From Deltaproteobacteria bacterium GWA2_45_12 (GTDB taxonomy: Bacteria; UBA10199), in assembly GCA_001797365.1 (NCBI GenBank), contig MGPH01000063.1, forward strand, positions 37,179 through 101,178: DNA of 64,000 nt, written 5' to 3'. The notes under the pieces were generated by a model, which was not told the origin of the DNA, did no database searches, and worked only from the letters and a program-made list of their open reading frames with translations. Below, one piece after another: positions 1 to 29,168 of the stretch. How positions within the stretch are numbered: position 1 is the first letter of the stretch; each line of letters opens with the position of its first letter. A program made the translations under genes and the position numbers.

Positions 1-1536
1 GTGATGAAAATGATTCGAGCCATGGAGCACTTCCGGCACTCCCAAAAATCCACCGAGGATGGCAAGGAGCCCAAGAATGGCTACAGGGGCATCCATGATC
101 CAGGGAACCTGACTTGAATGATGTTCCTCATGGTGGTCATGAGAATTGTGCGTTTTTCTTTCATGCCCCAAAAACACATATACAAAAAGACGGAACATGT
201 AAAAAGCCGTTAACCCCGCCGCCACAAGGCTTGTAACATACATCCACAAAGGGGCATGCAAATAAACATTCAATAAGATTTCATCCTTGCTGAAAAAACC
301 GGCAAAGGGCGGAATGCCTGCAATGGCCAAGGTTGAAACCAGAAAGGCAAAAGCGGTGACGGGCACTTTTTTGAAAAGCCCTCCCATGTTTCGAATGTCC
401 TGCTCATGGTGCATGGCATAGATGACACTGCCGGCCCCCAAGAATAAACAGGCCTTGAAAAAAGCATGGGTCACTACATGGAACAAGGCCGCTTGAGGGG
501 CCCCCACACCCAGGGCCAAAAACATATAGCCCAATTGCGACACGGTTGAATAGGCCAACACTTTTTTAATGTCGTATTGGGTGATCGCAATAAGAGCGGC
601 TAAAACAGCCGTGGCCAAACCAACGAGGGCAATAATATGCAGAGTCAGGGGCGCCATGTGAAAAAGGAAAAAGAGGCGCGCCACCATGTAAATACCTGCT
701 GTCACCATGGTCGCTGCATGGATAAGGGCTGAAACAGGAGTGGGCCCGGCCATGGCATCGGGCAACCAAATATAAAGGGGAATTTGCGCCGACTTGCCGG
801 TGGCACCCACAAAAAAACAAAGGGTCATCACCGTGGCAATGGGTAAAAACCATTCCTGATGAGAAATGAGAAAAGAATAACTAAGGTAGAGAGGCGCTTC
901 ACCGGTATTTTGGGTGACACAGGTTTTAACCAAATAAAACAAGCCAACCAAAAAACCAAAATCGCCGATACGGTTGACCACAAAAGCTTTTTTGCCCGCC
1001 TTGGCTTTTTCGGCATCCGTAAACCAAAATCCGATTAAAAAGTAGGAACACAACCCCACACCTTCCCACCCAACAAACAGAACCAATAAATTATCTCCCA
1101 ACACCAAAAGCAGCATGAAGAACAAGAACAAATTCAAATAGGCCAGATAACGGGAATAAGACACATCTCCCTTCATGTAGCCCACTGAATAATAATGAAT
1201 GAGCGAACCAACCCCCGTCACCACAAGAACCATCACGGCCGAGAGATGATCAAAGACAAAAGAAAAAGGAATTTGAATCAGGGATGTTGAAATCCAGGAA
1301 AACAAAGGCTCTGGTTGAAGAACTCCATTTTCCGGAAGACCTTTTAAAATACAGAAGGCCCAGAGCGCAATCCCGAAAGACAAAGTGGGCATGGCACAAG
1401 CAACAACCGAAGAAATAATTTCGGGAAAACCTTTGCCACGACGGGCTGCCCCCATGGACAAAAGGGCATTCACCACAAATCCCAAAAGCGGGAACGCGGG
1501 AATAAGGTAAAGGTATGTGTTCGAAAATGAAATCAT
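1..1536 (-). CDS. nuoL: NADH-quinone oxidoreductase subunit L (3' end runs off window)
   Basis: Not in the ORF track because no stop lies in the window. Manual translation from ATG at 1536 gives MISFSNTYLYLIPAFPLLGFVVNA...DHLSAVMVLVVTGVGSLIHYYSVGYM...LFVGWEGVGLCSYFLIGFWF...KKAFVVNRIGD, the NuoL signature. Follows nuoK. Confidence 0.95.
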   Translation of the reverse strand, partial: MISFSNTYLYLIPAFPLLGFVVNALLSMGAARRGKGFPEIISSVVACAMPTLSFGIALWAFCILKGLPENGVLQPEPLFSWISTSLIQIPFSFVFDHLSAVMVLVVTGVGSLIHYYSVGYMKGDVSYSRYLAYLNLFLFFMLLLVLGDNLLVLFVGWEGVGLCSYFLIGFWFTDAEKAKAGKKAFVVNRIGDFGFLVGLFYLVKTCVTQNTGEAPLYLSYSFLISHQEWFLPIATVMTLCFFVGATGKSAQIPLYIWLPDAMAGPTPVSALIHAATMVTAGIYMVARLFFLFHMAPLTLHIIALVGLATAVLAALIAITQYDIKKVLAYSTVSQLGYMFLALGVGAPQAALFHVVTHAFFKACLFLGAGSVIYAMHHEQDIRNMGGLFKKVPVTAFAFLVSTLAIAGIPPFAGFFSKDEILLNVYLHAPLWMYVTSLVAAGLTAFYMFRLFVYVFLGHERKTHNSHDHHEEHHSSQVPWIMDAPVAILGLLAILGGFLGVPEVLHGSNHFHH

Positions 1537-1625
1537 AATGACAATATCAGCAAGATTTTTATTAACGCCTCGAATGTAGAGCTTGCCATTGCACCCTTCC
1601 GCAATCCGCATTCCGCAATTCTCCC

Positions 1626-1928
1626 CTACCCCCCCATCACCTTCCAGTCGGCGGCATTGACTGTCTGGCGATGACGATACAAAACAAGCAAAATTCCCAA
1701 ACCGACAGCCGCTTCGGCAGCCGCCACGGCCATGACAAAAAACGTGACCACATGAGCATCCATTTGGCCGTAGTAACGGGCAAAAGCCACAAAGGCCAGG
1801 TTGGCCGAATTAAGCAATACTTCAATGCACATAAGAATGATCAAAAGATTGCGACGGATCATCAGCCCCACAAGGCCCAAGCCAAACAAAACAGCAGAGA
1901 GTGCAAGATAATGATAAAGTGTGATCAT
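1626..1928 (-). CDS. nuoK: NADH-quinone oxidoreductase subunit K
   Basis: 100 aa, three TM helices, RRNLLIILMCIEVLLNSANL and AVAAAEAAVGL motifs. Confidence 0.97.
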   Translation of the reverse strand: MITLYHYLALSAVLFGLGLVGLMIRRNLLIILMCIEVLLNSANLAFVAFARYYGQMDAHVVTFFVMAVAAAEAAVGLGILLVLYRHRQTVNAADWKVMGG

Positions 1929-2425
1929 GATTTTTCTTTCTTCCCCAAAACCACCACACCCACAAGAGCCACAAGCAAGGTCACCGAAATAAGCTCAAAG
2001 GGAATCATGTATTTTCCGAAAATAAGACGCCCTACTTCCTCGGGCGAACCAAAATGAGGATCAACCGGTTGAAAAGCCAAAAGAGGAATGTGTCTTAAGA
2101 CCTGAATCACCACGACGACAAAGAAGACACCAATGCCACCCAAAAGAAGATTTTTGGCATTCCAACGATCCACAACCAAATCTTCAGGACGAAGCCTTAA
2201 CATCATGATGACAAACACAAACAAAACCATGATGGCCCCGGCATAAACCAACACCTGCATGATGGCCACAAAGGGGGCATGAAGCAAAACATAAAGGGCC
2301 GACAATGCAAAAAAGGCAAACACCAAGCACATGGCCGAAGCAATGGGGTTATTGTTTATGATCATCAAAAGGATGGCCACAACAGTGATGGCTGCAAAAA
2401 TGTAAAAGAAAAATTGTTCACCCAT
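1925..2425 (-). CDS. nuoJ: NADH-quinone oxidoreductase subunit J
   Basis: NNNPIASAMCL, QVLVYAGAIMVLFVFVIMML, PFELISVTLLVALVG motifs. Confidence 0.96.
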   Translation of the reverse strand: MGEQFFFYIFAAITVVAILLMIINNNPIASAMCLVFAFFALSALYVLLHAPFVAIMQVLVYAGAIMVLFVFVIMMLRLRPEDLVVDRWNAKNLLLGGIGVFFVVVVIQVLRHIPLLAFQPVDPHFGSPEEVGRLIFGKYMIPFELISVTLLVALVGVVVLGKKEKS

Positions 2426-2455
2426 ATTAATTAAGGACGATCATGAAGATCGCCC

Positions 2456-3700
2456 CTACACCCATAATAAAGCAACGCTGTAAACCAAAAGGTTCACCAT
2501 ACCCAGGGGCACCATGATTTTCCAACCCAAGTGCATCACCTGATCATACCGAAACCGCGGCAATGTCCACCGCACCCAAATAAAAAACCAGCAACAAAAC
2601 AAAACCTTTCCCAAAAAAACACTAAACTGCACAAAAGCTGCAAAAATCTGGCTCCCCAAAGCGCCCAAATCAAAGGCTCCATGTAACAAAGCCAAAAGCG
2701 CCAATCCCAAGCCCACAATGCTTAAGGGAACACCCAATACCAACACTTCAAAATCGCGCCGGTCGCCGTATTTTCCTTTTTTGAATTTGCTCACCAAAAA
2801 CAGGCCCAAAAGCATGAAGAGAATTCCATTTCCCATGATTAGGATAAAGAGACCCATCTCGGCATTTTCTCTTAATAAAGAAGTGGGCAGAAAAGGAACC
2901 TGCCATCCCCCAAAAAATAAAAGGACAATCAAGGCGGAGGCGATGATCATGTGCGCATATTCGGCCATAAAAAACATGGCAAACTTCATGGAGCTATATT
3001 CAACATGGTACCCTACAATTTCGGATTCACCTTCCGGCAAATCAAAGGGCAAACGATTTGTCTCGGCAAAAGCGGCTGTCACAAAGATAAGACAGGCTAG
3101 CGGCATGCGGATAAAATTCCAATACAAGGGATTTGCGGTCTGGTTCAAGGATAAAATATTCAAATCAAGGGACCCCCCCATCAAAACCACTGAAAGAAGA
3201 GCCAACCCCATCGATATTTCATAACTACACATTTGAGCCGATGAACGAAGCCCACCCAAAAGGGCATATTTATTATTGGCCGACCAACCTGCCAGCATCA
3301 CTCCAAAAACTCCCAAAGAGCTCATCGCCAAAATATAAAGAATACCCACATCCAAATGAGCTGCTTGCAAATAAAAAGGAGCCCCATCAATGACCAAGGG
3401 TTCCCCAAAAGGAATGACGGCAAATGTGATGCAGGCGACCGTCAGGGCCATGAAAGGAGCCATGGTATAGTAAGGTCGGCTTACATGAGTGGGTGTAATG
3501 TCTTCCTTGGTCATCAGCTTGACCACATCTGCCAAGGCATGGAGCACGCCACCCAAGCGCAATCCAAAAATGGAAGCGCGATTGGGACCAGGGCGATCTT
3601 GAATATAGGCACAACCTTTTCGTTCCAGCCAAATGAGAAGAGGAATAATGTTAAAGATAATAAGAAACGGTATCAGAATTTTGAGAATGATCGTAAGCAT
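2456..3700 (-). CDS. nuoH: NADH-quinone oxidoreductase subunit H (extended, 414 aa)
   Basis: ERKGCAYIQDRPGPNR, GGLRSSAQMCSYE, AETNRLPFDLPEGESE, RWTLPRFRYDQVM motifs. Confidence 0.97.
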   Translation of the reverse strand: MLTIILKILIPFLIIFNIIPLLIWLERKGCAYIQDRPGPNRASIFGLRLGGVLHALADVVKLMTKEDITPTHVSRPYYTMAPFMALTVACITFAVIPFGEPLVIDGAPFYLQAAHLDVGILYILAMSSLGVFGVMLAGWSANNKYALLGGLRSSAQMCSYEISMGLALLSVVLMGGSLDLNILSLNQTANPLYWNFIRMPLACLIFVTAAFAETNRLPFDLPEGESEIVGYHVEYSSMKFAMFFMAEYAHMIIASALIVLLFFGGWQVPFLPTSLLRENAEMGLFILIMGNGILFMLLGLFLVSKFKKGKYGDRRDFEVLVLGVPLSIVGLGLALLALLHGAFDLGALGSQIFAAFVQFSVFLGKVLFCCWFFIWVRWTLPRFRYDQVMHLGWKIMVPLGMVNLLVYSVALLWV

Positions 3701-15429: not shown

Positions 15430-17433
15430 TTACAATCCAACCGAATTATAAAAACTGGCTTCGCAAACTTGGACCGCAGGTGCATAGATATGACAATCCC
15501 GGTAATTCAAAACTCCATCTCCGTCGGCATCTCCATTAAGTTCCAAGCCTGTTTTTGCCTTATAAATGACATTTAATTCGTCATAAAAAAGCTCAAAACA
15601 GGAAGCTGCGGGCCTTTGTTGGCGCCTTTCTCCAATGATGCGATCGAGAGCAGCAATATGGTCCCGTTCTTCTTCATCGGTTAAAGAACTTAGGGGCAAG
15701 AAACGGGCGGCCAGATTCGGCGTTTCACAACGTCCATAAAGACTTTGAGTTGAAGGATGGATTAAAGAACGAAGGGCCAAAAGCCGTTTGTCAAACGCAA
15801 GAAAATCTCCCACTACCTCCGGTAACTGTCCTTGAACAAGGGCCAAGCGTTCTCCTTCAAGCCCAAACTCAGCCAATTTTTCGGCAGTGAGAAAAGGATC
15901 AAAATCGGTGTGAAAAACCGAATAACCTTGGGCCACATTTTGAAAGGGGAAAAATCCCTCTAGAGACCAATGTTCAGTGACAGCAATGGATTCTTTTTTC
16001 TGCAGCACACCATAGAGCCATGGGAAGTAGTAAAGATTATCCAAATGATGCAAATAATAATTGTGGCCCTCTATCTCGGCAAACCGCACGCCTGAATGTC
16101 CTCCAAAACCATGATAGTCCCCCAAAAGTTCCACGGGCAGATTCATCGAATGAAAAAGATCTTTAAGAAGGGCTGAGGCCCCCCAGCATCCATTCACGAT
16201 ATGATATTGAGCCTGTAAAGGAGCATCAGGATGAATGACCAAATCGTGGTGGGGATCACGATAAACGAGCACTTCTTTGGGTGTGGGGTGTCTATTTAAG
16301 GGAACGCGGATTCCTTGCGGATCATAAAGAGGTTCTCCTTCGGCATTTCTAGCTCTGTAAGGCCAGATGGGATGAGAAGGCCCTGTTGTATTTTGATCCG
16401 TCCCGCGAATATGTTTGATACGTTCACCGACAAACTGGGTTGTATTCAGAAGGGTTTCAAGGGCTGTGGCCCCAACAAGATTTAAATGATGGTCTTGGGC
16501 TTCACGAAGAGTTCCTTTCACAATCCGAAAAGTTTCAGTGACGTCAAGCTGGGTTCCATAATATTGTTTTTCTGGAAATCGAAACAGAAGCGCCAAACTC
16601 TCTTCGGAATACCCAAGAATGGACCATGGAAGAAGATGATTGGCCTCCACATAAAGATTCCAAGCCATTTGAGTTAGTTGGAGATATTCCCTATATTCTG
16701 GAGTGAAAACCGTATAGGGAACCCTGAACATGTCGACCCGATAGCAAGAGTTTTCACCCCCTTGAGGAGAACAATTTCCTTCAAAAGGGGGAAGCCTTTC
16801 CCCTTGGACCTCTTCATAAAAAACAAGGGTGTTGATTAATTTTCTTTTCAGAGCTTCATCCCAATCCGGAAAGGGTGTGATCCCATCTAGCTTCATCGTT
16901 GATAAAAGTTTATCACTTGTAAAAACGGGACGATATTTTTCCCGATAGAGATCGCGTTTTTCAGCCGCAACCAGGGCATCAAAATAGGGGACAGGATTTG
17001 CTGGTTCTGGATTGGCTCCTGGATTGGGATTGGGATTGAAATTAGGATTACCCCTTTGATTGGGGTTTGCTCGGGCGGGGTTACCAAGCGGTGGTCTGTG
17101 ACCTCCAAAAATGGGCGCATGTTCACAGGCATCCCCCTGACCATCCCCATTGGCATCTTCTTGGTTTGGGTTAGGAGTCTGTTGACAGTTATCAACATCA
17201 TTGGAAACAGTGTCCCCATCCAAATCATTGTCACACTCATCCCCTATACCATCCCCATCCTTATCTTTTTGGTCTGGATTGGCCACATCGAGACAATTAT
17301 CAGAAGCATTAAGGACGGTATCAACATCAAAATCATCGCCGGGGACCGGAGATGAGCCCGCACCTCCCCCCCCTCCACAATGGGCAAGAAATAAAAACAA
17401 AACCAAACTTAAATGGGAGAAAATCAACTTCAT
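15430..17433 (-). CDS. Lipoprotein with thrombospondin type-3 Ca-binding repeats and a transglutaminase-like domain
   Basis: Lipobox FLAHC; DNCLDVANPDQKDKDGDGIGDECD repeats; Asn/Pro linker; NGCWGASALL...GHSG...LDN. Confidence 0.75.
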   Translation of the reverse strand: MKLIFSHLSLVLFLFLAHCGGGGGAGSSPVPGDDFDVDTVLNASDNCLDVANPDQKDKDGDGIGDECDNDLDGDTVSNDVDNCQQTPNPNQEDANGDGQGDACEHAPIFGGHRPPLGNPARANPNQRGNPNFNPNPNPGANPEPANPVPYFDALVAAEKRDLYREKYRPVFTSDKLLSTMKLDGITPFPDWDEALKRKLINTLVFYEEVQGERLPPFEGNCSPQGGENSCYRVDMFRVPYTVFTPEYREYLQLTQMAWNLYVEANHLLPWSILGYSEESLALLFRFPEKQYYGTQLDVTETFRIVKGTLREAQDHHLNLVGATALETLLNTTQFVGERIKHIRGTDQNTTGPSHPIWPYRARNAEGEPLYDPQGIRVPLNRHPTPKEVLVYRDPHHDLVIHPDAPLQAQYHIVNGCWGASALLKDLFHSMNLPVELLGDYHGFGGHSGVRFAEIEGHNYYLHHLDNLYYFPWLYGVLQKKESIAVTEHWSLEGFFPFQNVAQGYSVFHTDFDPFLTAEKLAEFGLEGERLALVQGQLPEVVGDFLAFDKRLLALRSLIHPSTQSLYGRCETPNLAARFLPLSSLTDEEERDHIAALDRIIGERRQQRPAASCFELFYDELNVIYKAKTGLELNGDADGDGVLNYRDCHIYAPAVQVCEASFYNSVGL

Positions 17434-17674
17434 ATAGATAAAATGAAATCTGCAAAGGAAAGGCCAGTTCATAAATTCTAATTTGTTAATAAATACTTAA
17501 TTTTATTATGTTTATATGATCCTTTTTGCTGGTTTAGAAAATTAACATCCACAAACCGTCAAAAGACAAGACACTTTTATCACTTTAAACAGGTCTTTTT
17601 GACCTATTACCTGCCACCAAAGCTTAAAAATGTTCCCTCGGGGGAAACAGGAGGTATGGAAGAGATTTGAGAAG

Positions 17675-19132
17675 CTATTGATTTCCTACTGGAACTGTAA
17701 TTACCACGGGGCTCGCTTCAAAGGGAACCGTTTCACCCTTGGCTTTTACTTCTAGTTTGGCACCGACGCTAAACGTATTTGAATTTTGATCAATATTATT
17801 GGGAAGATTAAAACGTGTTGTCACAGTAATTTGTTGCCCAAATCTTAAAGCAAAACGGCATACGCCGGAATTGGCTTGAGGAACGCATTGTCCACCCTGC
17901 ATTTCAAAACGCTGATTCACCACCTGGGAAGGGGTTGTCAGGGTCAATTCCAGATCGTCATCGGTAAAATCCATGGCCGTATTGTTTTTGACAAGCGTTT
18001 GAATTGTGACAGCTTCCCCCGGAGCCCAGGCCCCATCCCCATTATTGTCCGCCGCCGATTGGGCCACTTCAAAATCATCGTGCCCATCCACTTCGATATC
18101 GGTTTTGGGTAATTCGATTTCTTTTTCATCGGGACAAAGGGCTTTGGGGGCAAAGGAAAATTGTTTATCCCCCACCGAACCATCATTGGTTAAAATTATT
18201 TCAAGGGGACAGGTGCGTATGGTGTCATGAATGGCTGTTTCAAAATTGCTGCGCCGGCAGGCATTGCGCACCTGCAATATGGCAATGACTGTTTCCAAAC
18301 TTATCTCGTGGGAATCGGGATTAAATGTCTTTTCTTTTAATTCGGCATCTACAGGCTCAATAAAAGACGGGAAATCGATATTTTTAACCCGGCATGATTC
18401 CGGATAATGCAAATCAAGGGTGATATGACTTAACCTTTTTTCACGTTCTTGGGTTGCATCAAAATTGGAAAGCTGGGCGGAGTAGTCTACTCCGATGGGA
18501 ATATTTAATTCCAAGGCACTTCCCGAAAGAGTGCCGCAGGCCTTGCCCGATTCAGTCGAGCTGACACCATCCTCATTTTTTTTGTCATCTTTTTCAGATT
18601 CATCATCCCCCTTATCATCAACAGGATCTTCAACGGGGGGATTGTTATCCACACATTTGGCATCGTTGGCACAATCGGAATCATCACAATCTTTCTTTCC
18701 ATCAGCATCGTCATCATCGCCATTATCACAATTAACTTCGCGCGGTATACCCACTTGAGCATGAGCCTGGTTTAAAAAATGAAACTTCCATTTTTCCCCC
18801 TTTAAAAAAGGGGAATGCAAGGGGGATTTTTTGAATAACGCCACTCTTGTCACATCAAGCGACAATAAATCAGCTTCAACCACTGTAATGCAATAAGTGC
18901 CATCCTTGTCATCGACATCCAACTTGAAACGGCCACTCTTATCCGTTTTTCCCTTTTTAACTTCAGCATCGTTTCTTGTAAGGGCAAATCCCATGTTGGC
19001 CAAGGCCGGCTCGTCTTGTTCGTGCTTGTTGTTGTTGTTTTGGTCAAGAAAAACCCGACCCTTCAATTCATGCCCACAGCCAGTTAACAAAAAAGAAATA
19101 AGAAAAAGAAATAAATAATGACGTTGTTTCAT
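17675..19132 (-). CDS. Lipoprotein with SdrD B-like domain, Cys/Asp-rich motif and DUF11-like C-terminal Ig domain
   Basis: Lipobox LLTGC; GRVFLDQNNN...DEPAL...TDKSGRF; EVNCDNGDDDDADGKKDCDDSDC; PGEAVTIQTLVKN. Confidence 0.7.
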   Translation of the reverse strand: MKQRHYLFLFLISFLLTGCGHELKGRVFLDQNNNNKHEQDEPALANMGFALTRNDAEVKKGKTDKSGRFKLDVDDKDGTYCITVVEADLLSLDVTRVALFKKSPLHSPFLKGEKWKFHFLNQAHAQVGIPREVNCDNGDDDDADGKKDCDDSDCANDAKCVDNNPPVEDPVDDKGDDESEKDDKKNEDGVSSTESGKACGTLSGSALELNIPIGVDYSAQLSNFDATQEREKRLSHITLDLHYPESCRVKNIDFPSFIEPVDAELKEKTFNPDSHEISLETVIAILQVRNACRRSNFETAIHDTIRTCPLEIILTNDGSVGDKQFSFAPKALCPDEKEIELPKTDIEVDGHDDFEVAQSAADNNGDGAWAPGEAVTIQTLVKNNTAMDFTDDDLELTLTTPSQVVNQRFEMQGGQCVPQANSGVCRFALRFGQQITVTTRFNLPNNIDQNSNTFSVGAKLEVKAKGETVPFEASPVVITVPVGNQ

Positions 19133-19194
19133 AGGAATTTAGGATAACAAAGGGAAAGTTGAAGATAAAGTTCTTTATACAAACCCTTAGCTCC

Positions 19195-19782
19195 TTATTT
19201 TTTGGGCTTTTTAACGGGCTTAAGAGGTTTCATGATTTGCTTAAGATCTTTTTCGTAGCCTTCCGATTTTGCAAAATGTTTCAGATATTTCAAATCGATA
19301 AATTTTTGGTTTTTAAGCCACAAGAGGCGTGCTTGTTCCAAACGAGACTTCTGCCCCCACTCAACACCGGCAATAATACGATCCATGATGATGTCTTCAA
19401 TTCGTATAACTCGTACCCGATAGCCTTCAAATTCGACAATATTAACATCTCCAATGTGACGATTACCCACTTCAATGGGCGACGGTGGAAATTCGACGAC
19501 AAAAGGGAAAAGAGGATGTTCGAAATGCCGATAAGTACTGGTTCTTTTAAAACCTATACTCCCCATCACTCTTTCAATGATTGTCGTTGTATCTCCCACC
19601 AAAATGGCATCGAGATCCTTCGTCGTATATTCTGCCTTCGTATAATATTGAACAGCAGCGCCCCCTACAACTGTAAGCAAAACATTGTCGCTATCAAAAA
19701 GTCTGGACAAATAACCTCCAAGAGCCAACTGTTGAACTTCGACCGGCATTTTTGAAATTTTGAGTAATTCCTGATCGCTCAT
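19195..19782 (-). CDS. Nucleotidyltransferase (AbiEii/DUF6036-like)
   Basis: VVGGAAVQYY...TTKDLDAIL Pol-beta-superfamily motif; overlaps the upstream HTH gene by 4 nt. Confidence 0.75.
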   Translation of the reverse strand: MSDQELLKISKMPVEVQQLALGGYLSRLFDSDNVLLTVVGGAAVQYYTKAEYTTKDLDAILVGDTTTIIERVMGSIGFKRTSTYRHFEHPLFPFVVEFPPSPIEVGNRHIGDVNIVEFEGYRVRVIRIEDIIMDRIIAGVEWGQKSRLEQARLLWLKNQKFIDLKYLKHFAKSEGYEKDLKQIMKPLKPVKKPKK

Positions 19783-20213
19783 AGCAAGCCTTTCTTTTTC
19801 ATTATCTTTTCTTCATCAAAGGCGCGTGGCTGTAACCTTTTAGATGTTAAACCCAAGATCATCTCTTTTGGGATAGGAATCCGGTCATATTCTTTGGAAA
19901 GTTGCTTCCATTTAAAGACACGGTTGATGTTATAAGTTTGTTCATTGGCCTGATCGATATCGGATAGTAATTTTTGAAGGCTTAAATACAACGGAAACCG
20001 CCCATTTAACCGATAGGCCCTTTGATTGGCCCTTTTGGATGAAAACAAGAACCCCCAATTTTCCATGTTGATGAGTTCGCGATAGGTCTGCTGCGGGGAT
20101 ATCTTGATCTCGCGCGCAAGCTCGCGCACACCCACCTGGGCTTTGGGATTATCAATAAAATATTTAAGCACCGCCCGACGTACTTTAGAAGGAATGAGAA
20201 ATTTCAAGTCCAT
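19779..20213 (-). CDS. Winged-helix HTH protein (putative antitoxin/regulator)
   Basis: SKVRRAVLKYFIDNP..VGVRELAREIKISPQQTYRELINMENWGFL..RAYRLN; probable ATG at 20213. Confidence 0.8.
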   Translation of the reverse strand: MDLKFLIPSKVRRAVLKYFIDNPKAQVGVRELAREIKISPQQTYRELINMENWGFLFSSKRANQRAYRLNGRFPLYLSLQKLLSDIDQANEQTYNINRVFKWKQLSKEYDRIPIPKEMILGLTSKRLQPRAFDEEKIMKKKGLL

Positions 20214-20217
20214 GGCC

Positions 20218-20260
20218 AATTGTCATAGTTTTGATGACAATTGTCAACATTTTGGTGACA
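20218..20260 (-). promoter_or_regulatory. Twin operator palindromes TGTCA-N9-TGACA overlapping a candidate promoter
   Basis: Sites at 20221-20239 and 20242-20260, 21 bp apart. On the minus strand, TTGACA-17nt-GACAAT ends 5 nt before the HTH ATG. Confidence 0.65.
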
Positions 20261-20300
20261 TTTAATGAAAATCTCAAAGGAATTAATCAGCCTTTTTTAA

Positions 20301-23300
20301 TTACCGCGCAAATCGCAGGGGGCTTTTTGAAAATCCATGGAAGGGTACAGCCCTATTACGCAATGCCATGAGGCTATGCCATGTGGATGGTCCTGTTTTT
20401 CTTCCTGGCCTAGCACTCCGTAATGGCATTTTTGCGGGCACAGGATCATCTGATGACACACCTAATGAAACGGGAGTGGTTTCCGCAGAAACTTGAAGAG
20501 GTAATTCTTTATTTTCTGGTAAAAGCGCTTTTTCCCCACGGTGCCTGCTCGTTCCCTGAACCCTTCTTCTCTTACCTTGAGTAAGAGTAAGCCCCTTGGT
20601 TTGAAAATGATCAGAGTCCGGATCGGGATCAGGTTGATGAATGCCTAAAATATCAAAAGCCAATCGGGCATCCCTAAGCGAAGCCCGTCCTTCAACTTCC
20701 TTAAAATTTTTGGTGATAACCCAAAGCCCTTGCTCTTTGAAAAAATTCAAAGCCCCTTGATAAGAAAAATGCCTAATGGCCTCGCTTTGAGAAGTGGCCT
20801 TTTCCCATCGCATCACCAAATCTCCTTCGGCAAGATCTAGATGCGCCTCCAAAGATTTTAAAAAATCAATCCATGCCCAATAAACAATGGGGCTATCAAA
20901 ACTCTTTCCCTCAAAGGCTTCGGGATGTTCTCTACCAAACCATTGCATAGCCAAACCAAGATCCAGCCGCGTTCTCGGGGGAATATGTTGATTAATCTTG
21001 GCATCCCATTCCACCAAACGTCTAATTTGAATCTCGGCTTTTCCTTTCCTGGAGAGTGGCCGCTCAAAATCATAATAAATCGTCCAATCAGCGCTTTGAT
21101 CTACCTGCTGCATTTCAGGCTGTGTCTGCACATACCGCCTGGCGAGTCTCATCCGTATGCCCAATGTATGAATATCCTCGGGATTATCTCCAAGGGCCGC
21201 TAACCAAGATGTATCAGCAACAGGATCAATGAAAAACTTTAATTCAGAAAGCCCAGCACTCTCCAGCAAGGAAACCACTTTTGGGAATTGGTCTTTAAGA
21301 ACATAATCATAAAGATCATTTAAGGGTATGTTAAAAAGATGGCTTACAAGCGTCAGGGTAGCCTTTTTCGGAGGGGCCTTTCCTTCCAGAAAATCAATAA
21401 GGCGTTCCAAGGGGCAGGTAAGTAACCCATCTTCCGAAACAAAAACTTTCTGTTTAACATCATAGGAACCTACTGCCGGATTAAACACTCTGGCTATTAC
21501 AAGGGCAGCAGGATTTTGAGGATGGCATATTGGAAAATGGCTGCCAATTTTATTGACAAGACGAACTTGTTTTTCTGATGAAAGATAAATTTCGCCGCGA
21601 TCACACCGCGTCCATAAAGGATCAATCTGTGGCAAATGTTCCCTATTGAGCCAGTAGGCCAAGAGCATTGGGTCTAGGTTCATGGCTCTGGCCAATTTTA
21701 AAAGAAGGACGTGATCGGGATAAGGGATTCCTCCGGAAATCAACTTATGCCATGTATTGGGAGTAATTCCGATATAATCGGCCACCTTTTCGTTGGATAA
21801 ACAAAGAGGAGATGGTAACCCCGCCCACCAAGCTTTAAGGCGATCAAGAAATTGGTAAGCTCCATATTCTCGCACAATGGCCTCATCCAAAGAAATGCCG
21901 TTGGCATCGGCCCTGCCTTTAAGATCAAACCACGATTTTGAAGAGGTTAAACTTTCAAACTTATCCTTGAATTTTTCAAAGAAAGGCAGACGCACTTTTA
22001 AGTAAAGGATTTTCTGAATATCTTGAAAACTCAAGCCCTCAAACATACTTCCATGGGCATTTTCAAAAACGGCATGGGCTATTGCCGGCACCAATTCAAC
22101 CGGAACACCTTTTTTAATGAGAGCAGGCCATTTCAATTTTGGATTTTTAGTTTGAATCACCGGGTGCTGAAGTGCTACCCAGGCGGCTTCCACACGTGCA
22201 AAATCCTTTGCAACAAATTCATTTCCAATAAAATTCCAGTCAATACCGGAAACCCTGTCCAAAGTCCATTCTGGGGAAAGAGAGAAGTCAATGGTTCTTC
22301 TATGGGATGAAACCAACCCCTCATAGCGCTCGCAGGCGAGGGTATAAAGTTCTTCCATATCAAGCAAAATTCCGGACCTTTGCGCCAGACCCACTAGGGT
22401 TTGGGCCCTGACAGCATTAAGACGCCCCTTTGAAAACAAGAAAACATCGTCTGCTTGTTTGACTTCAAAAAATCCATCCTGATTTTTGTAGAAACTGACA
22501 TAATCCTCTGTTTCATCTTTTCTTAATTTTTCCCAAATGGCTTTCAGTTTTAAAGATAAACCTGTATCGGTTAAGGCATATCTGGGAGTAAGTTTAGGAT
22601 TATAACAACTCCCCATGAAGTAATGCAGTTCCCCCTGCCTGAAATGCACAAACAATTCAAATGGGTCCACCCCAAACTGGGCAACCAAAGCATCCATATC
22701 CTCATCAGTCACCGTGTAAAGACGGTGTTTGAATTTTTCAGGAAGTCCCAAGGCATGGATCAATTCATCGATGGTTGCAAGGCCCATTTCACCCTTCTTT
22801 CTTTCCATGGCGGCACTTAAAAATTCATCTCCGCGCCCACGAACATCACGCTCGGCCATCAAGGCGCGGGCCAGGGCAGTCAAAGCCAGTGCCTTTTCTT
22901 CAGGAAGAGAAAGATCTGGAGGGATAAGATTAACCGTGGCCCCTTCTTGGGAGGCTATTGGGAAAAGTAAAAAAGGCCATGGGTGAGCGGAAGCACACAT
23001 CAAAGCGGCATCCATGGGATGAGTTTCTGCAAAGCCAATGATTTTTTCATCACTAGCAGGATAGTTTCTTTGTTCCTGGACTTGAGCGGTATTTCTGTCT
23101 GCATAGCCTAGCATCCGGCACATGGCAGAGTATCCTTGGCGCTCTCTCAACCGAAGACCATAGATAATTTCTGGATGGGACAAACCCAAAATATTTGGGG
23201 GAAATTCATTTGAAGGAAGTTTAATAAAGGGCCCATTGTCATCACAAATCCATTTTTTAAGCGGTGGCCAAGCCAATTGGGCATAAGCCGGTAAATCCAA

Positions 23301-26300
23301 TTTATCCGCAAAAGCCACCATAAATGCCAGTTTGATCTCTTCTCCAACGCTAATACGAGAGTATTGAGTCAGAAAAACAATGTGATTGCCATTAACATCT
23401 AATGTGTGCCCAGTTAGTGCCTCCCACATTGTTCGAATCAGGGAGGCAGCTTGGGGATAACTCATCCCACCAATGGCTTTATTAACAAGATCCCGCATGG
23501 TCCCTTCTCTGGCTTCCCGAAGTACACGTCTTTGCGGTTTTGACAGGCCTTGTGCCGTAGCCATTTCCCAAAGAGCCTCTGTATCTACTTTGATAAAATC
23601 CGCAATGCGCCGCACATCTCCGCTTTTCAAATCCTTGGCAACGCCCTGTTCCAAATCGTAATAGGCCTTGTCGTTGATTCCGTAACGCCGAGCCATATCT
23701 TCAACTCCCAAGGCGTAAAGCTGACGGACAAGATATAAAAACCCCGACAACCCAGTTGCATTTTTATAAAAACACGGGATTTGATGTTTGGCCGCTCGGC
23801 CATCAAGGTAAAATCGCAACCGTTTTTTACCCAAATGGTCCATGACTTTTTTCATTTCAGAATTGTTGGCCCAATCATCCACCAAATCGACAAAGACCCG
23901 TCCCCCTTTATTGGGGATTTGGGCGGGTACACAATCGTGCATCACACAATCAAAAACATCATCCACAAGTTGGCCGGTCAAGCTGGCCACATCACGCACC
24001 AATTCCAAAGTGGGAAAACTCTTATTCCCACAAATGAAATTGAGGGCAATTTGCCCCTGAAGCAAAACCCGCCGCTCATCGGCAGCTGTTATATCAAAAC
24101 GGCTCTCGTTTCTGAGCGGGGAATGCTTGGGGTCAAGCAAGGTTCTAAAAAGAAGATAACGCGGATTTGCGGCAATTTCCTCAAACGGTTTTTTTGAAAA
24201 TTCTCCAACAATGCGCAAAAGGGCAGGTGTATCGCAATAGAGCTCATAACCCGGCCCTTGAGTAAAACGGCTATCCACTTCAGGATGGGCCTGCCTGTTT
24301 ATAAGGCAGGTCATCACTGAGATATCCATTTGCAAACCCAACACCTCCATCCATGCAGCAAGTAGCGGCTTTAACGGCAGATCATCTCCTGCCTTCCAAT
24401 TTTCAAAAGTCTGCAATAACTTGATGGGTGCAGGGTAGACCTTCCTTAAGTCTGAAATACGTCGCCCCACCTCTTCAATACTTAACCCTAGTGCCTCCCG
24501 ACGCTGTTTTAAAAAATCACACCACAGCAAATTATCAAAACAACAAGCGACAAGATCGGCAAGCACTTCGCCCGTGGTTTGGCACCTCTGTTGAAGGGCT
24601 TCATAACTTTCAAAATTCAAAGGTGAAACCTCTGTGGGTGTTTCATTAGTTAACACACGAGAAATTTGCCTTCTTTCAGAAAGCGCATTTGGACCAATTT
24701 TTTTAAATTTTTGTAGGAAGGCAGCATTGAATTTCAAGAAAAGTATTTTTTCTGTAATATCACCCATGCCCGCATCCTTGGCTTTGGCAGACACAATGCA
24801 AATTTGGCGGTCGTTTAAGCTTAAGGCCACTTCCTTTAAACCTTTCTCACCCACCGCACTAAAATGTCGAATACCCTTCCAATAAACTTCCGCCGGTGTC
24901 CCAGCTGGGGACAGCTGAGTGGCAATGTCTTCCATGAGTGTTTGGACATCCAGGGCTTTGATGGCTTTTTCATCACTCGCATTGGGCCAGCTCCAATCAA
25001 TATCTCCAGAGGGGGAAGTGCCCATAAAATAATGCAAACGGCCATATTGAAAGCCTTCAAGAATCCTTTGAGAATCCACAAAGGGTAGTTTCTCTATCAA
25101 CGCTAACAATTCATCATCATTGAGCACATGCATGGTAGAACTCAAAATGCGGCGCACCAATCTTTCCCCAAACCCTAATTTGTTTATCATGAAAACTTCA
25201 TCACTAATCCCCTGACAATCCATGGCAAGTTTCAGTTTTTGAACAATCTCACCAATATAAGCACGTACCCCGGGTAGAGAACGCCAACGAGCATACAAGG
25301 CCCGATGGGTTTCCGGAAAATCAACACGTGTTCCATCAGCACGTAAAAAATGAGGATCAAAAGCGGCCATCCAAGGGAAACAATTGAGAACAAGGGCGTG
25401 ATAATTTGGGGAATTCACTGGCCAGACTTTTTCGGCAAGCTCGAGCAATTTTTGCCGGCTACCAAAACCCGGTACGCCAGCATAATTGTAGTATTGGGTA
25501 AGGGCCAAACCGAGAATATCGGCTTGCTCCTTGGGCCCGGCAAATTGCCTGAATTCACGCGTTTGTACCGTGTGAGCCATGTTATAGGCCCACAAATCGG
25601 CCCATGATGAAACATCATTGGGCACACACCATGGGTCCTCTGTGGTCAATACAGGAAAACTTTCGGCATCACTAGGGTGGGCTCTCACCCAAAGATTACG
25701 GAATGTTTCAGGGGCAACTTGCGCGCGAAATGTATAAAGAAAGGAAAACACATGCTCCCTTAAGTAATTGTAACGGGAAGTATCCATTTCAACCTCGGGA
25801 GGGTTCGACATCCTCTCCCGCATGCGTGTAAAAGTAGCATAGGTGGGGACCGGAAATTCCGGCATATCTTTAAAAAGAGTAAAGGCCACCTCCTGCCTGA
25901 CTTCCTCGGCATTCAAGCCCCCGGAAATGCGATAAAACGGATTATGTCCTTTGTAAAAATGAAGCAGAGCATGGCACAATGGGCGATCTTTGCCATGGTC
26001 GGAGAAAGCCAAAAATAAACCATGTTCTGATTGATCGTTAAAACCATGTTTAAGAGATGCCGCCAAATCATAAGCCAGTCGTGTATATCCCCATGAGAAC
26101 AAAATGAGTTGTCTTAAAGGAATCCCCAAACGGGAAGATATTGAAGCAAGTTTAGTAAAAATTTGAGGACTACCTTTGCGAAGGCCTTCCCTTTCGCACA
26201 AAGATTCTTCATCCGCGCTCAGAGTGTCTGCTTCTTCAGGTATGACAGAACTTATGTTGTCAGGATGCGTGGCATCCTGGGCTATAGCCTTAAGGATTTT

Positions 26301-27968
26301 TATACTTTTCTCTTCACTAGCAAAAACGAGCCCCACAACTTGACACCAGAAATACTTTTCGCCGCTACTCATGGCATCCCGTTTTTTGTCAGAAATAAGA
26401 CGAAGTCCAAGAGCACCATTTACTATTTCCTCAAGATCGCCTTCAAGCCCTGACAGACGTATTTCCCTAATGGTCGCATGGGGGTCAATCTTCCCTTCTA
26501 GTTGTTTTTGGATACGTTTAATCCATAAGGGTTTGACTGCGTCCCATTTTGACTCTCCATCGGGAAGACTTGTTAGAAGGGTATGTACTGTTGTCCCCAA
26601 AAAGTCGGCAATCCCCAACAATTTTTCCGGAGCATCATATTCATCCCACGAAAAACCATAATGACTTCCCACCTGCAATGGAGAATAAAAGGATATAATC
26701 TGTGCTACGGTAAAACCTGTTTTCCTAGCTATCCTTTTAAAATCTTGCGGGGTGAAATCATCAGAAAGCGAAATTTGCCATGATAAAGCCAGAAGATCGC
26801 GTAAGGGGATATCGGTGATATCATGCATATATTGCAGGTCTTCAAAAGAAGCCCTTGGACCAAGATGATGACGGGCATAATTTTCAAATCCTTGGATATC
26901 ACTTTCATTGGCGTAATAGTATTCAACAAGGCGACTTACCAAGCCTATGTCATCTTCTGCCACATCCCATAGAACATCCATGGTTGGGAACCCTCCGGTT
27001 CTCCTAAGAGTTACTTTGGCCACCAATGGACGAAGGGGATCTGCCAAATCAAGGGATGCTCCCTTTTCCAAAAGGAAAATGTGTCTCTCCAATTGAGCCC
27101 TATTTTTGGCGCTAAGGCGCACTCTTCTGGCGCGAGGAGGTTTGGATGGCTTCTCGGGTTTGATTTTGGGCCGGGCGTCCTCTGCCAAAAGACCTTCATC
27201 CCTTTCATCAAGAAGGGGAACCATGTCAAAGTCGTCGGCTCCGTTGAGAAGATCATCCAGCCTAGCTCCTGGGCTTCTACGCTCAGTGAAAAAATCATCT
27301 CCTGCACGTTTTAAAATGGCATCAAGATCCTCTTCAGTAACCTTGTTCCCAGATGTTGATGAACTCGCTTTAATACTTCTACCGGCAGGGGAAATACCCG
27401 GCACGTTGGCTATGAGCCCCTTAAAGAAACCATCAATATTTTCCTCTTTGAGAGCTTCTCCACGATCAAGCTTAAGGCGAATGTTAAGGGAGTATTCTCC
27501 GGCCCCTATCTGAGTTATTGATATTCTCCCAAAAAAAGCGGTTAAAGAATTATTTTGATAGACAAAGCCAAAGGGAAAAGAATCACCACCAGCGTCCACA
27601 CTGGCAATGAATCTTTGACGGCAATCCATATTGGCAACCGTTGTTCCACCACTAAAATGCATGCGCATTTCATTGGTACCTACTCGAGGGTTGGCCACAA
27701 GCATTGATGAAGGTAAAAACCTCAGCCACTCCTTAATCAATTCACTTTGATCTTCGGTAAACTTGAATGTGAAATGCAATTCGTTGTTGGAAATGGTTAA
27801 ATGCGATGGGTCTTTGAGTGCCTGAATAATTCGATGCCTGTCTGATCCCACATCATTAAAAAGAAGGCGTGAAAGTATAACCAAAATCCGTGGCGAAGAT
27901 GGACTTTCCGGGCTTGGGGATGCTACAGAGGGGACGCTATGTGTCCCATTAGTCGAATCAAGAGTCAT
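20301..27968 (-). CDS. Giant (2555 aa) protein with multiple XRE-like HTH domains
   Basis: 7.6-kb uninterrupted ORF; units such as FLKQRREALGLSIEEVGRR, LYLVRQLYALGVEDMARRYGINDKAYYDLEQG, LSNEKVADYIGITPNTWHKLISG. Confidence 0.85.
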   Translation of the reverse strand: MTLDSTNGTHSVPSVASPSPESPSSPRILVILSRLLFNDVGSDRHRIIQALKDPSHLTISNNELHFTFKFTEDQSELIKEWLRFLPSSMLVANPRVGTNEMRMHFSGGTTVANMDCRQRFIASVDAGGDSFPFGFVYQNNSLTAFFGRISITQIGAGEYSLNIRLKLDRGEALKEENIDGFFKGLIANVPGISPAGRSIKASSSTSGNKVTEEDLDAILKRAGDDFFTERRSPGARLDDLLNGADDFDMVPLLDERDEGLLAEDARPKIKPEKPSKPPRARRVRLSAKNRAQLERHIFLLEKGASLDLADPLRPLVAKVTLRRTGGFPTMDVLWDVAEDDIGLVSRLVEYYYANESDIQGFENYARHHLGPRASFEDLQYMHDITDIPLRDLLALSWQISLSDDFTPQDFKRIARKTGFTVAQIISFYSPLQVGSHYGFSWDEYDAPEKLLGIADFLGTTVHTLLTSLPDGESKWDAVKPLWIKRIQKQLEGKIDPHATIREIRLSGLEGDLEEIVNGALGLRLISDKKRDAMSSGEKYFWCQVVGLVFASEEKSIKILKAIAQDATHPDNISSVIPEEADTLSADEESLCEREGLRKGSPQIFTKLASISSRLGIPLRQLILFSWGYTRLAYDLAASLKHGFNDQSEHGLFLAFSDHGKDRPLCHALLHFYKGHNPFYRISGGLNAEEVRQEVAFTLFKDMPEFPVPTYATFTRMRERMSNPPEVEMDTSRYNYLREHVFSFLYTFRAQVAPETFRNLWVRAHPSDAESFPVLTTEDPWCVPNDVSSWADLWAYNMAHTVQTREFRQFAGPKEQADILGLALTQYYNYAGVPGFGSRQKLLELAEKVWPVNSPNYHALVLNCFPWMAAFDPHFLRADGTRVDFPETHRALYARWRSLPGVRAYIGEIVQKLKLAMDCQGISDEVFMINKLGFGERLVRRILSSTMHVLNDDELLALIEKLPFVDSQRILEGFQYGRLHYFMGTSPSGDIDWSWPNASDEKAIKALDVQTLMEDIATQLSPAGTPAEVYWKGIRHFSAVGEKGLKEVALSLNDRQICIVSAKAKDAGMGDITEKILFLKFNAAFLQKFKKIGPNALSERRQISRVLTNETPTEVSPLNFESYEALQQRCQTTGEVLADLVACCFDNLLWCDFLKQRREALGLSIEEVGRRISDLRKVYPAPIKLLQTFENWKAGDDLPLKPLLAAWMEVLGLQMDISVMTCLINRQAHPEVDSRFTQGPGYELYCDTPALLRIVGEFSKKPFEEIAANPRYLLFRTLLDPKHSPLRNESRFDITAADERRVLLQGQIALNFICGNKSFPTLELVRDVASLTGQLVDDVFDCVMHDCVPAQIPNKGGRVFVDLVDDWANNSEMKKVMDHLGKKRLRFYLDGRAAKHQIPCFYKNATGLSGFLYLVRQLYALGVEDMARRYGINDKAYYDLEQGVAKDLKSGDVRRIADFIKVDTEALWEMATAQGLSKPQRRVLREAREGTMRDLVNKAIGGMSYPQAASLIRTMWEALTGHTLDVNGNHIVFLTQYSRISVGEEIKLAFMVAFADKLDLPAYAQLAWPPLKKWICDDNGPFIKLPSNEFPPNILGLSHPEIIYGLRLRERQGYSAMCRMLGYADRNTAQVQEQRNYPASDEKIIGFAETHPMDAALMCASAHPWPFLLFPIASQEGATVNLIPPDLSLPEEKALALTALARALMAERDVRGRGDEFLSAAMERKKGEMGLATIDELIHALGLPEKFKHRLYTVTDEDMDALVAQFGVDPFELFVHFRQGELHYFMGSCYNPKLTPRYALTDTGLSLKLKAIWEKLRKDETEDYVSFYKNQDGFFEVKQADDVFLFSKGRLNAVRAQTLVGLAQRSGILLDMEELYTLACERYEGLVSSHRRTIDFSLSPEWTLDRVSGIDWNFIGNEFVAKDFARVEAAWVALQHPVIQTKNPKLKWPALIKKGVPVELVPAIAHAVFENAHGSMFEGLSFQDIQKILYLKVRLPFFEKFKDKFESLTSSKSWFDLKGRADANGISLDEAIVREYGAYQFLDRLKAWWAGLPSPLCLSNEKVADYIGITPNTWHKLISGGIPYPDHVLLLKLARAMNLDPMLLAYWLNREHLPQIDPLWTRCDRGEIYLSSEKQVRLVNKIGSHFPICHPQNPAALVIARVFNPAVGSYDVKQKVFVSEDGLLTCPLERLIDFLEGKAPPKKATLTLVSHLFNIPLNDLYDYVLKDQFPKVVSLLESAGLSELKFFIDPVADTSWLAALGDNPEDIHTLGIRMRLARRYVQTQPEMQQVDQSADWTIYYDFERPLSRKGKAEIQIRRLVEWDAKINQHIPPRTRLDLGLAMQWFGREHPEAFEGKSFDSPIVYWAWIDFLKSLEAHLDLAEGDLVMRWEKATSQSEAIRHFSYQGALNFFKEQGLWVITKNFKEVEGRASLRDARLAFDILGIHQPDPDPDSDHFQTKGLTLTQGKRRRVQGTSRHRGEKALLPENKELPLQVSAETTPVSLGVSSDDPVPAKMPLRSARPGRKTGPSTWHSLMALRNRAVPFHGFSKSPLRFAR

Positions 27969-28082
27969 AATTTTTTATTTTAATTGTTGTTAATTGGGTA
28001 GTTATATCGTCCATAGTTTCCAAAAGTTGCGCCAAAAAAACAAAAGACAAACCTTCAAAACTAATATAAATTTAAAACACTT

Positions 28083-29168
28083 ATGCCAGGAAATTCATTT
28101 GGACTTCTCTTTAGAATAACCACCGCCGGCGAAAGCCATGGGCCGGGAAACACTGTTATCATTGACGGGGTCCCTCCCGGCATTCCCTTGGCCCCGGAAG
28201 ATTTTGTGCCCGATATGAACCGGCGAAAGCCCGGGCAATCTAAAATCACCACCCAGCGCCAGGAAGAAGACCAGGTCGATATTTTATCCGGCGTGTTTGA
28301 GGGCAACACCACGGGCACGTCGATCGCCCTGTTCATCCCCAACACCGATGCCCGTTCAAAAGACTACGAAGATATCAAAGACAAATACCGCCCTGGACAT
28401 GCCGATTACACCTTTGATGCCAAGTATGGTTTCCGCGATACCCGTGGCGGAGGGCGTTCCAGCGCTCGGGAAACCACAGCCCGTGTGGCTGCAGGGGTTG
28501 TGGCAAAAAAGATTCTGGCCATGGAAGGGATTTTTGTTGTCGGTTATGTCAAACAAGTGGGGAACATCATCGCCAACATCCCCCACCCGGAAAAAATCAC
28601 GCTTAAACAGGTTGAATCCAACATCGTGCGTTGCCCGGATGAAAAAACCGCACAAAAAATGATCGAACTCATTGAACAAGTGCGCAAAGAGGTTGACTCG
28701 ATCGGCGGTGTAGCTGAAATTGTGGCCACAGGAGTCCCTCCCGGCTTGGGGGAACCCGTCTTTGACAAATTGAAAGCCGACTTGGGGAAGGCCATGCTCA
28801 GCTTACCGGCAGTTCTTGGCTTTGAATATGGTATCGGCTTTGGGGCTGCCACCCTCCGTGGAACTCAAAACAACGATATTTTCGTGGCCCAAAAAGGGGA
28901 AATCGGCACAAACCCCAATCGTCATGGGGGAATGCTTGGGGGCATTTCATCCGGAATGCCCATTGTCATCCGCTGTGCCATCAAACCCACAAGTTCCCTG
29001 GCCCGTGAGCAACAAACCATTACCAATTCAGGCGAAAAAACCACCATCGCCACCAAAGGAAGGCACGACCCCTGCCTGCTCCCCCGCTTTATTCCGATGG
29101 GGGAAGCCATGATGGCCATCACCCTGGCGGACCATTTATTGCGTCACCGGGCCCAAAACCTGGCTTAG
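28083..29168 (+). CDS. aroC: Chorismate synthase
   Basis: TTAGESHG, RPGHADYT, GGGRSSARET, GRHDPC. Confidence 0.98.
   Translation: MPGNSFGLLFRITTAGESHGPGNTVIIDGVPPGIPLAPEDFVPDMNRRKPGQSKITTQRQEEDQVDILSGVFEGNTTGTSIALFIPNTDARSKDYEDIKDKYRPGHADYTFDAKYGFRDTRGGGRSSARETTARVAAGVVAKKILAMEGIFVVGYVKQVGNIIANIPHPEKITLKQVESNIVRCPDEKTAQKMIELIEQVRKEVDSIGGVAEIVATGVPPGLGEPVFDKLKADLGKAMLSLPAVLGFEYGIGFGAATLRGTQNNDIFVAQKGEIGTNPNRHGGMLGGISSGMPIVIRCAIKPTSSLAREQQTITNSGEKTTIATKGRHDPCLLPRFIPMGEAMMAITLADHLLRHRAQNLA

Follow-up and report, generated by a model that had tools for sequence, protein, structure and literature searches.

The stretch of DNA analysed here, 64,000 nucleotides of contig MGPH01000063.1 from Deltaproteobacteria bacterium GWA2_45_12 (hereafter the window), carries on its minus strand, at 20301..27968, a single open reading frame (ORF) that encodes 2,555 amino acids (aa) plus stop. 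The protein, which we call the giant, contains XRE-type helix-turn-helix (HTH) units, lacks transmembrane segments and has a mildly acidic isoelectric point (pI) of 6.2. The best explanation of the evidence as a whole, and one that we consider likely, is that the giant is a duplicated and concatenated member of a rare, uncharacterised family of soluble proteins whose function is a guess. A block spanning aa 915-1470 is present a second time, in the same order, at aa 1720-2330 (~555 versus ~610 aa, spaced 800-910 aa apart); the two copies have 19-29% identity and no DNA similarity left. An original prediction made from the DNA alone had proposed two super-repeats of 800-900 aa, produced by the ancient duplication of a multi-HTH module. 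The ancient duplication stands, as the self-alignment is significant and the repeated multi-domain block carries XRE-type HTH units, its segments being collinear. The proposed length does not: aa 1471-1719 and aa 2331-2555, the last ~250 aa of each super-repeat, have no similarity to one another (p 0.64), and the detectable repeat is therefore confined to the ~555/610 aa given above rather than covering the full period.

The prediction was built on five pairs of short motifs, and all ten motifs lie where it had placed them, within the translation of the one ORF. They start at aa 972/1775, 1073/1985, 1222/2106, 1310/2192 and 1435/2297; the corresponding offsets are 803, 912, 884, 882 and 862 aa, and the two methionine codons quoted for the first pair (25023-25025 and 22614-22616) are correctly positioned. 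The self-alignment that had been named beforehand as the refutation test, aa 900-1700 against aa 1701-2400, reaches a Smith-Waterman score of 77 (Gumbel p 6e-5), a value attained by none of 3,000 shuffles (null 40.8 +/- 5.1, maximum 70). The sub-blocks aa 890-1100 versus aa 1690-2010 and aa 1100-1470 versus aa 2005-2330 score 78 (p 4e-6) and 77 (p 7e-6), respectively. When 250-aa blocks of the whole protein were compared all-against-all (171 pairs), the best pairs all fell on the 750-1000-aa offset band, and the top three pairs in a self dot-plot of the whole protein with ungapped 30-aa windows are motifs 1, 2 and 3 of the prediction. A 7x7 segment matrix, with borders picked after the alignments had been seen, is diagonal-dominant (diagonal z of 10.5, 4.8, 7.9, 1.5 and 3.5 for segments 1-5, the fourth being weak, and -0.6 and 0.5 for segments 6 and 7), while off-diagonal z are all <=2.6 and z within a module is <=3.8; the motif matches are therefore not just generic similarity among HTH units. 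That there is no higher-order repeat at all, the motif pairs being generic HTH+linker similarity or chance, is barely credible: motifs 1, 2 and 3 are indeed variants of one helix-5-plus-linker signature that recurs across the family, blastp of the protein against itself yields no off-diagonal high-scoring segment pair at E<10 (a method too insensitive at this level of identity) and every single dot-plot window score falls inside the range of shuffle maxima, but the segments of module 1 match their positional partner only, the best block pairs share a single offset band, the shuffles never attain the observed score and the outgroup homolog P0002, described below, bridges both copies. Local iterative hidden Markov model (HMM) searches seeded on one HTH were merely self-reinforcing. 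An assembly artefact was ruled out as the source of the repeat because the copies share no DNA similarity.

An exhaustive HMMER search with aa 940-2139 as query against 1.84 billion representative proteins returned four remote homologs: P0002 (859 aa), P0003 (583 aa), P0005 (1,204 aa) and P0004, a fragment of 210 aa. A word-indexed protein search found only the giant itself, a profile of the domain X described below added one fragment, and aa 1-320 gave nothing. The family alignments contain no conserved stretch of 7-10 columns, and a degenerate DNA pattern for L.YF.G....G.ID....P was used in place of one and scanned over genome and metagenome collections. Its 54 matches are mostly due to chance (one of them, L039, proved to be a ZIP-type transporter), with four genome loci and four metagenome loci being real. 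These scans added ORFs in the loci L005, L014, L017 and L026, which come from metagenome-assembled genomes (MAGs) labelled Deltaproteobacteria or UBA10199, as well as in L038 and L049, and the family now comprises about ten remote homologs from MAGs with these labels. P0002 aligns contiguously with the giant over ~500 aa (P0002 aa 298-795 with giant aa 1372-1866), and its aa 650-821 also match giant aa 915-1091 and its aa 255-367 also match giant aa 2188-2303, so that this one protein connects the two copies. In P0005, the repeat that opens the array (aa 522-639) has its match at giant aa 1152-1264. HTH arrays of this kind did not turn up in literature searches. No conserved gene neighbour was found at the homolog loci. 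At three high-GC loci (L014 4501-7047, L017 1870-4602 and L026 1929-4514) the family gene is followed by a long ORF (848-910 aa) in the same orientation, and in two of the three the C-terminal part of this ORF is a pyridoxal phosphate-dependent enzyme (PALP, about 1e-55); the window has no such neighbour.

The homolog alignments identify motifs 1 and 2 as the two ends of one conserved domain of ~175 aa, which we call X and which has the signature GELxYFMG....GxIDYxLPxG ... LLYLYFRxxLxxF, present in the giant as well. An X HMM made from the homologs only matches the giant at aa 919-1088 (81.8 bits, E 3e-27) and at aa 1723-1793 (E 1.2e-7), and a second X profile (the A2 HMM) matches aa 1733-1838 and aa 1894-2004. 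The first copy, X1 (aa 915-1096; 24681..25226, minus strand, as are all parts of the giant given below), contains motif 1 as GRLHYFMG..GDIDWSWP and motif 2 as KILFLKFNAAFLQKF. The more diverged second copy, X2 (aa 1720-2004; 21957..22811), contains GELHYFMG, IDFSLSPEW and KILYLKVRLPFFEKF, and it is the X1-X2 comparison that gives the score of 78 above. Because the A2 HMM also matches aa 1894-2004, X2 must carry an insert of ~100 aa (aa ~1794-1893; 22290..22589, an approximate placement with two alternative alignments), which explains why the offset rises from 803 aa in the first motif pair to 912 aa in the second. The insert resembles the second half of X and is located differently by MAFFT and by HMM alignments, an ambiguity that suggests a possible further small internal duplication.

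Each homolog has one X, and in P0002, P0003, P0005 and the ORFs in L005, L017, L026, L038 and L049 it is protein-terminal; the fragments P0004, P0006 and L014 have one X each. The giant has two, both internal within its 2,555 aa, unlike all complete homologs, and the expectation that homologs would vary in module number is thus borne out. An AlphaFold model of X1 from seven aligned sequences is confident (predicted local distance difference test, pLDDT, 86.3; predicted template modelling score, pTM, 0.82) and all-helical, with twelve helices and, where the GxIDW motif lies, a small hairpin. Foldseek found no neighbour of this model below E = 1 in PDB or BFVD, X has no match in Pfam, NCBIfam or a PDB sequence search, and PADLOC gave only generic HTH matches. 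In P0003 (L003), an upstream partial match of aa ~237-348 to positions 47-164 of the X profile reflects the generic HTH+linker repeat and shows X itself to be derived from two such repeats.

The plan common to the family begins with a variable N-terminal region and continues with an array of ~100-130-aa repeats, each composed of an XRE-like HTH and a conserved hydrophobic linker (hYhxxPxhxxhFP....G..h.h), the last two repeats forming X. The high-GC homologs have seven HTH+linker repeats each, preceded by a different N-terminal region of ~500 aa with hydrophobic helices. In the giant, the N-terminal region (aa 1-914, N + Z; 25227..27968) has no significant homolog match or internal counterpart. 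The fourth-best pair in the dot-plot, DIPLRDLLALSW / GIPLRQLILFSW (aa ~368-400 / ~597-630, window 26000-26900, offset 229), is weak and hints that degenerate HTH+linker units may be present in this N-terminal third too. X1 is followed by Y1 (aa 1140-1470; 23559..24551), which holds motifs 3, 4 and 5 in roughly three HTH+linker repeats, a count that, like that for the next segment, comes from sequence inspection; the alignment of Y1 with Y2 is the one that scores 77 (p 7e-6). Between Y1 and X2 lies an unduplicated segment, W (aa 1471-1719; 22812..23558), collinear with P0002 aa ~385-650 and P0003 aa ~269-415. After X2 comes the second Y copy, Y2 (aa 2005-2330; 20979..21956), in which a Y-W profile matches aa 2234-2320 and to which the P0002 match at aa 2188-2303 belongs. 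The protein ends in a tail (aa 2331-2555; 20304..20978) that has no counterpart elsewhere in the protein and whose final ~130 aa have a basic pI of 11 and are rich in Pro, Ser and Arg.

This order suggests that the giant consists of family arrays joined head to tail, equivalent to some two and a half family proteins. Unit 1 would comprise aa 1-1096 and close with X1. Unit 2 (aa 1097-2004, Y1-W-X2) would open with a 'first-HTH' repeat, Y-a, which is the segment after X1 matched by P0005, run collinear with P0002, including the contiguous alignment described above, and close with X2. Unit 3 (aa 2005-2555, Y2 plus tail) would reopen with Y in a truncated or degenerate form. The super-repeats of the original prediction would then be the X-Y block seen at two unit junctions: the block does occur twice, but its phase has been corrected, because X, the domain marked by motifs 1 and 2, is the last in every complete homolog, so that these motifs end units rather than start them. 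Since X closes every complete relative and a 'first-HTH' segment follows each X of the giant, concatenation is the most economical reading, and the division into three units is what we infer from the repetition of X-Y and the order of segments in the homologs.

Several observations weigh against this reading. The part of unit 1 upstream of X1 (aa 300-914) has no significant similarity to Y1-W (aa 1100-1719; p 0.16), in-register pieces of it being only marginal against Y-W (p 0.04 and 0.07), and the tail of unit 3 matches nothing. The giant, P0002 and P0003 have N-terminal domains between which no homology could be demonstrated. Pfam recognises no more than three HTH units in the giant, the pI of the repeated blocks is slightly on the acid side (5.6-6.3), and an AlphaFold model of aa 1130-2329 (1,200 aa, 7-row alignment) has a mean pLDDT of 43 and a pTM of 0.32. 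To these must be added the after-the-fact borders of the segment matrix and the repeat counts in Y and W taken by eye. Finally, the sole other assembly with the giant gene adds no independent confirmation: contig DNQF01000148.1 of the MAG assembly GCA_003501025.1, where the gene is called as 2,527 aa, equals window 18471-29086 save for 7 mismatches, all at the very end of the contig, and the two are one genome.

The concatenated arrangement may go back to a tandem duplication within one gene or to a fusion of tandem paralogs. If two or three neighbouring paralogs of the family had fused through loss of stop codons, X would lie where the giant has it, as both copies sit where gene ends would be if, as in every complete homolog, X terminated the protein, and a repeat of the 'first-HTH' type comes within 12-55 aa after each copy. 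We nevertheless consider fusion unlikely. In homologs, the array has 200-500 aa in front of it, and neither unit 2 nor unit 3 has a comparable N-terminal domain, for which reason partial duplication within one gene is favoured. Nor did a relative with tandem genes kept separate turn up, the family genes being single in the homolog loci, several of which are short or cut at contig ends.

What the giant does can be approached through its HTH units, of which three resemble the XRE (Cro/C1) type described by the Pfam families HTH_3, HTH_19, HTH_31 and HTH_26; the homologs match these families too. The unit at aa 1152-1208 (24345..24515) is a weak XRE/POU-like HTH (Pfam Pou E 0.0063, HTH_31 0.014, on a 200-aa segment), and its positional counterpart in the second copy is the XRE-type HTH at aa 2057-2100 (21669..21800; HTH_3, HTH_19 and HTH_26). 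The third, at aa 1410-1466 (23571..23741; HTH_19 and HTH_31), aligns with the HTH_3 match of P0002 (P0002 aa 340-392) and has motif 5 (YYDLEQG) in its recognition helix. Motif 5 (YYDLEQG / YYDFERP in the two copies) corresponds to the end of the XRE recognition helix, and motif 3 to the linker after an HTH. Taken singly, the HTH units stay below the Pfam cut-off (25.8, 17.0 and 16.1 bits), whereas whole-protein scores exceed the gathering thresholds of HTH_19, HTH_31 and HTH_3 (38.5 versus 30.2, 36.2 versus 27 and 30.1 versus 23 bits, respectively).

Ordinary XRE regulators have 70-300 aa, with one HTH and a sensor or oligomerisation domain, and bind palindromes as dimers. The family described here differs from them in having 7 to perhaps 20 units per chain, joined by a family-specific conserved linker, and in an array that ends in the 175-aa X domain with its lack of Pfam, NCBIfam, PDB and BFVD matches. 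The single-unit homologs (P0002, P0003, P0005 and the ORFs in L005, L017, L026, L038 and L049) have the HTH+linker repeat and the X signature in common with the giant, which is 2-4 times longer and has two internal X copies rather than one C-terminal X. Several small helical DNA-binding modules per polypeptide are also found in the POU domain, the paired domain, Myb repeats and the (HhH)2 array of Methanopyrus topoisomerase V. These are analogies; none of them gives a significant match in sequence or structure, the Pou match at aa 1152-1208 being weak and below the cut-off and topoisomerase V (chain 8df7_A) appearing for the X1 model at a Foldseek E of 2.9 only. The giant's scale, linker and terminal domain are unrelated to theirs.

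A canonical XRE recognition helix survives in some repeats, YYDLEQG being an example, and our tentative guess is therefore that the giant is a multivalent DNA-binding scaffold of an architectural or regulatory kind. Its few competent XRE heads would bind several DNA sites at once and the many degenerate HTH units would act as structural spacers, while X may serve as an oligomerisation or pairing module; in the giant, X1 could pair with X2 of the same chain. A more specific version, in which X is the oligomerisation module of an undescribed class of architectural DNA-binding proteins made of long XRE-like HTH arrays and the giant a single-chain 'dimer-and-a-half' whose X1-X2 pairing would place the equivalent arrays Y1 and Y2 on two related DNA sites, is speculative and, in our estimate, improbable. 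Pseudo-twofold symmetry of the two modules, which the original prediction had read from the duplication as a covalent dimer of an HTH array, is hypothetical, the AlphaFold model of aa 1130-2329 being of too low a confidence for a comparison of Y1 with Y2. A serious rival is that the HTH-like units do not bind DNA and that the protein is a structural or protein-binding helical-repeat scaffold lengthened by duplication, because the modules are net acidic and the linkers, not the recognition helices, are best conserved across the family; most HTH units are also too degenerate for Pfam, and the model of X has no DNA-binding structural neighbour. Canonical XRE features are kept in at least three units, however, the whole-protein Pfam scores lie above their cut-offs and the homologs have stronger HTH_31 and HTH_3 matches (E 1e-13 and 2e-8), and we regard a scaffold that does not bind DNA as doubtful.

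The neighbours of the giant gene are ordinary chromosomal genes (chorismate synthase, a tetratricopeptide repeat protein, a ClpB-like ATPase, a purM-like gene and nuo subunits). Directly downstream, at window 19195-20213 on the minus strand, lie two overlapping small genes that look like a toxin-antitoxin pair of the AbiE/MNT type, judging by a predicted winged-HTH protein of 144 aa (PADLOC PDC-M05A, 3.8e-11) and a DUF2204/AbiEii-like nucleotidyltransferase of 195 aa (Pfam 1.9e-4). Beyond them (window 15430-19132, minus) is a gene whose 680-aa product contains thrombospondin type-3 repeats (2.4e-16), next to one for a protein of 485 aa that matches MG2 weakly; both products may be surface or secreted proteins. 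The strong AT skew of window 1-3700 (about 0.3) is explained by minus-strand genes for nuoK/J/H-like membrane subunits and is ordinary.

The value of the finding is modest, in that duplication and fusion of repeat arrays are a well-known route to giant proteins and the evolutionary event itself is ordinary, while the family and its terminal domain are undescribed. What is new is a rare and uncharacterised family, with about ten members among 1.8 billion representative proteins, in which XRE-like HTH units are joined by a conserved linker, and a terminal domain, X, that is predicted to fold confidently and for which neither PDB nor BFVD gave a structural neighbour. The giant provides a natural comparison between single and concatenated units of this family, from which one could learn whether pairing is mediated by X and in what way HTH arrays read DNA.

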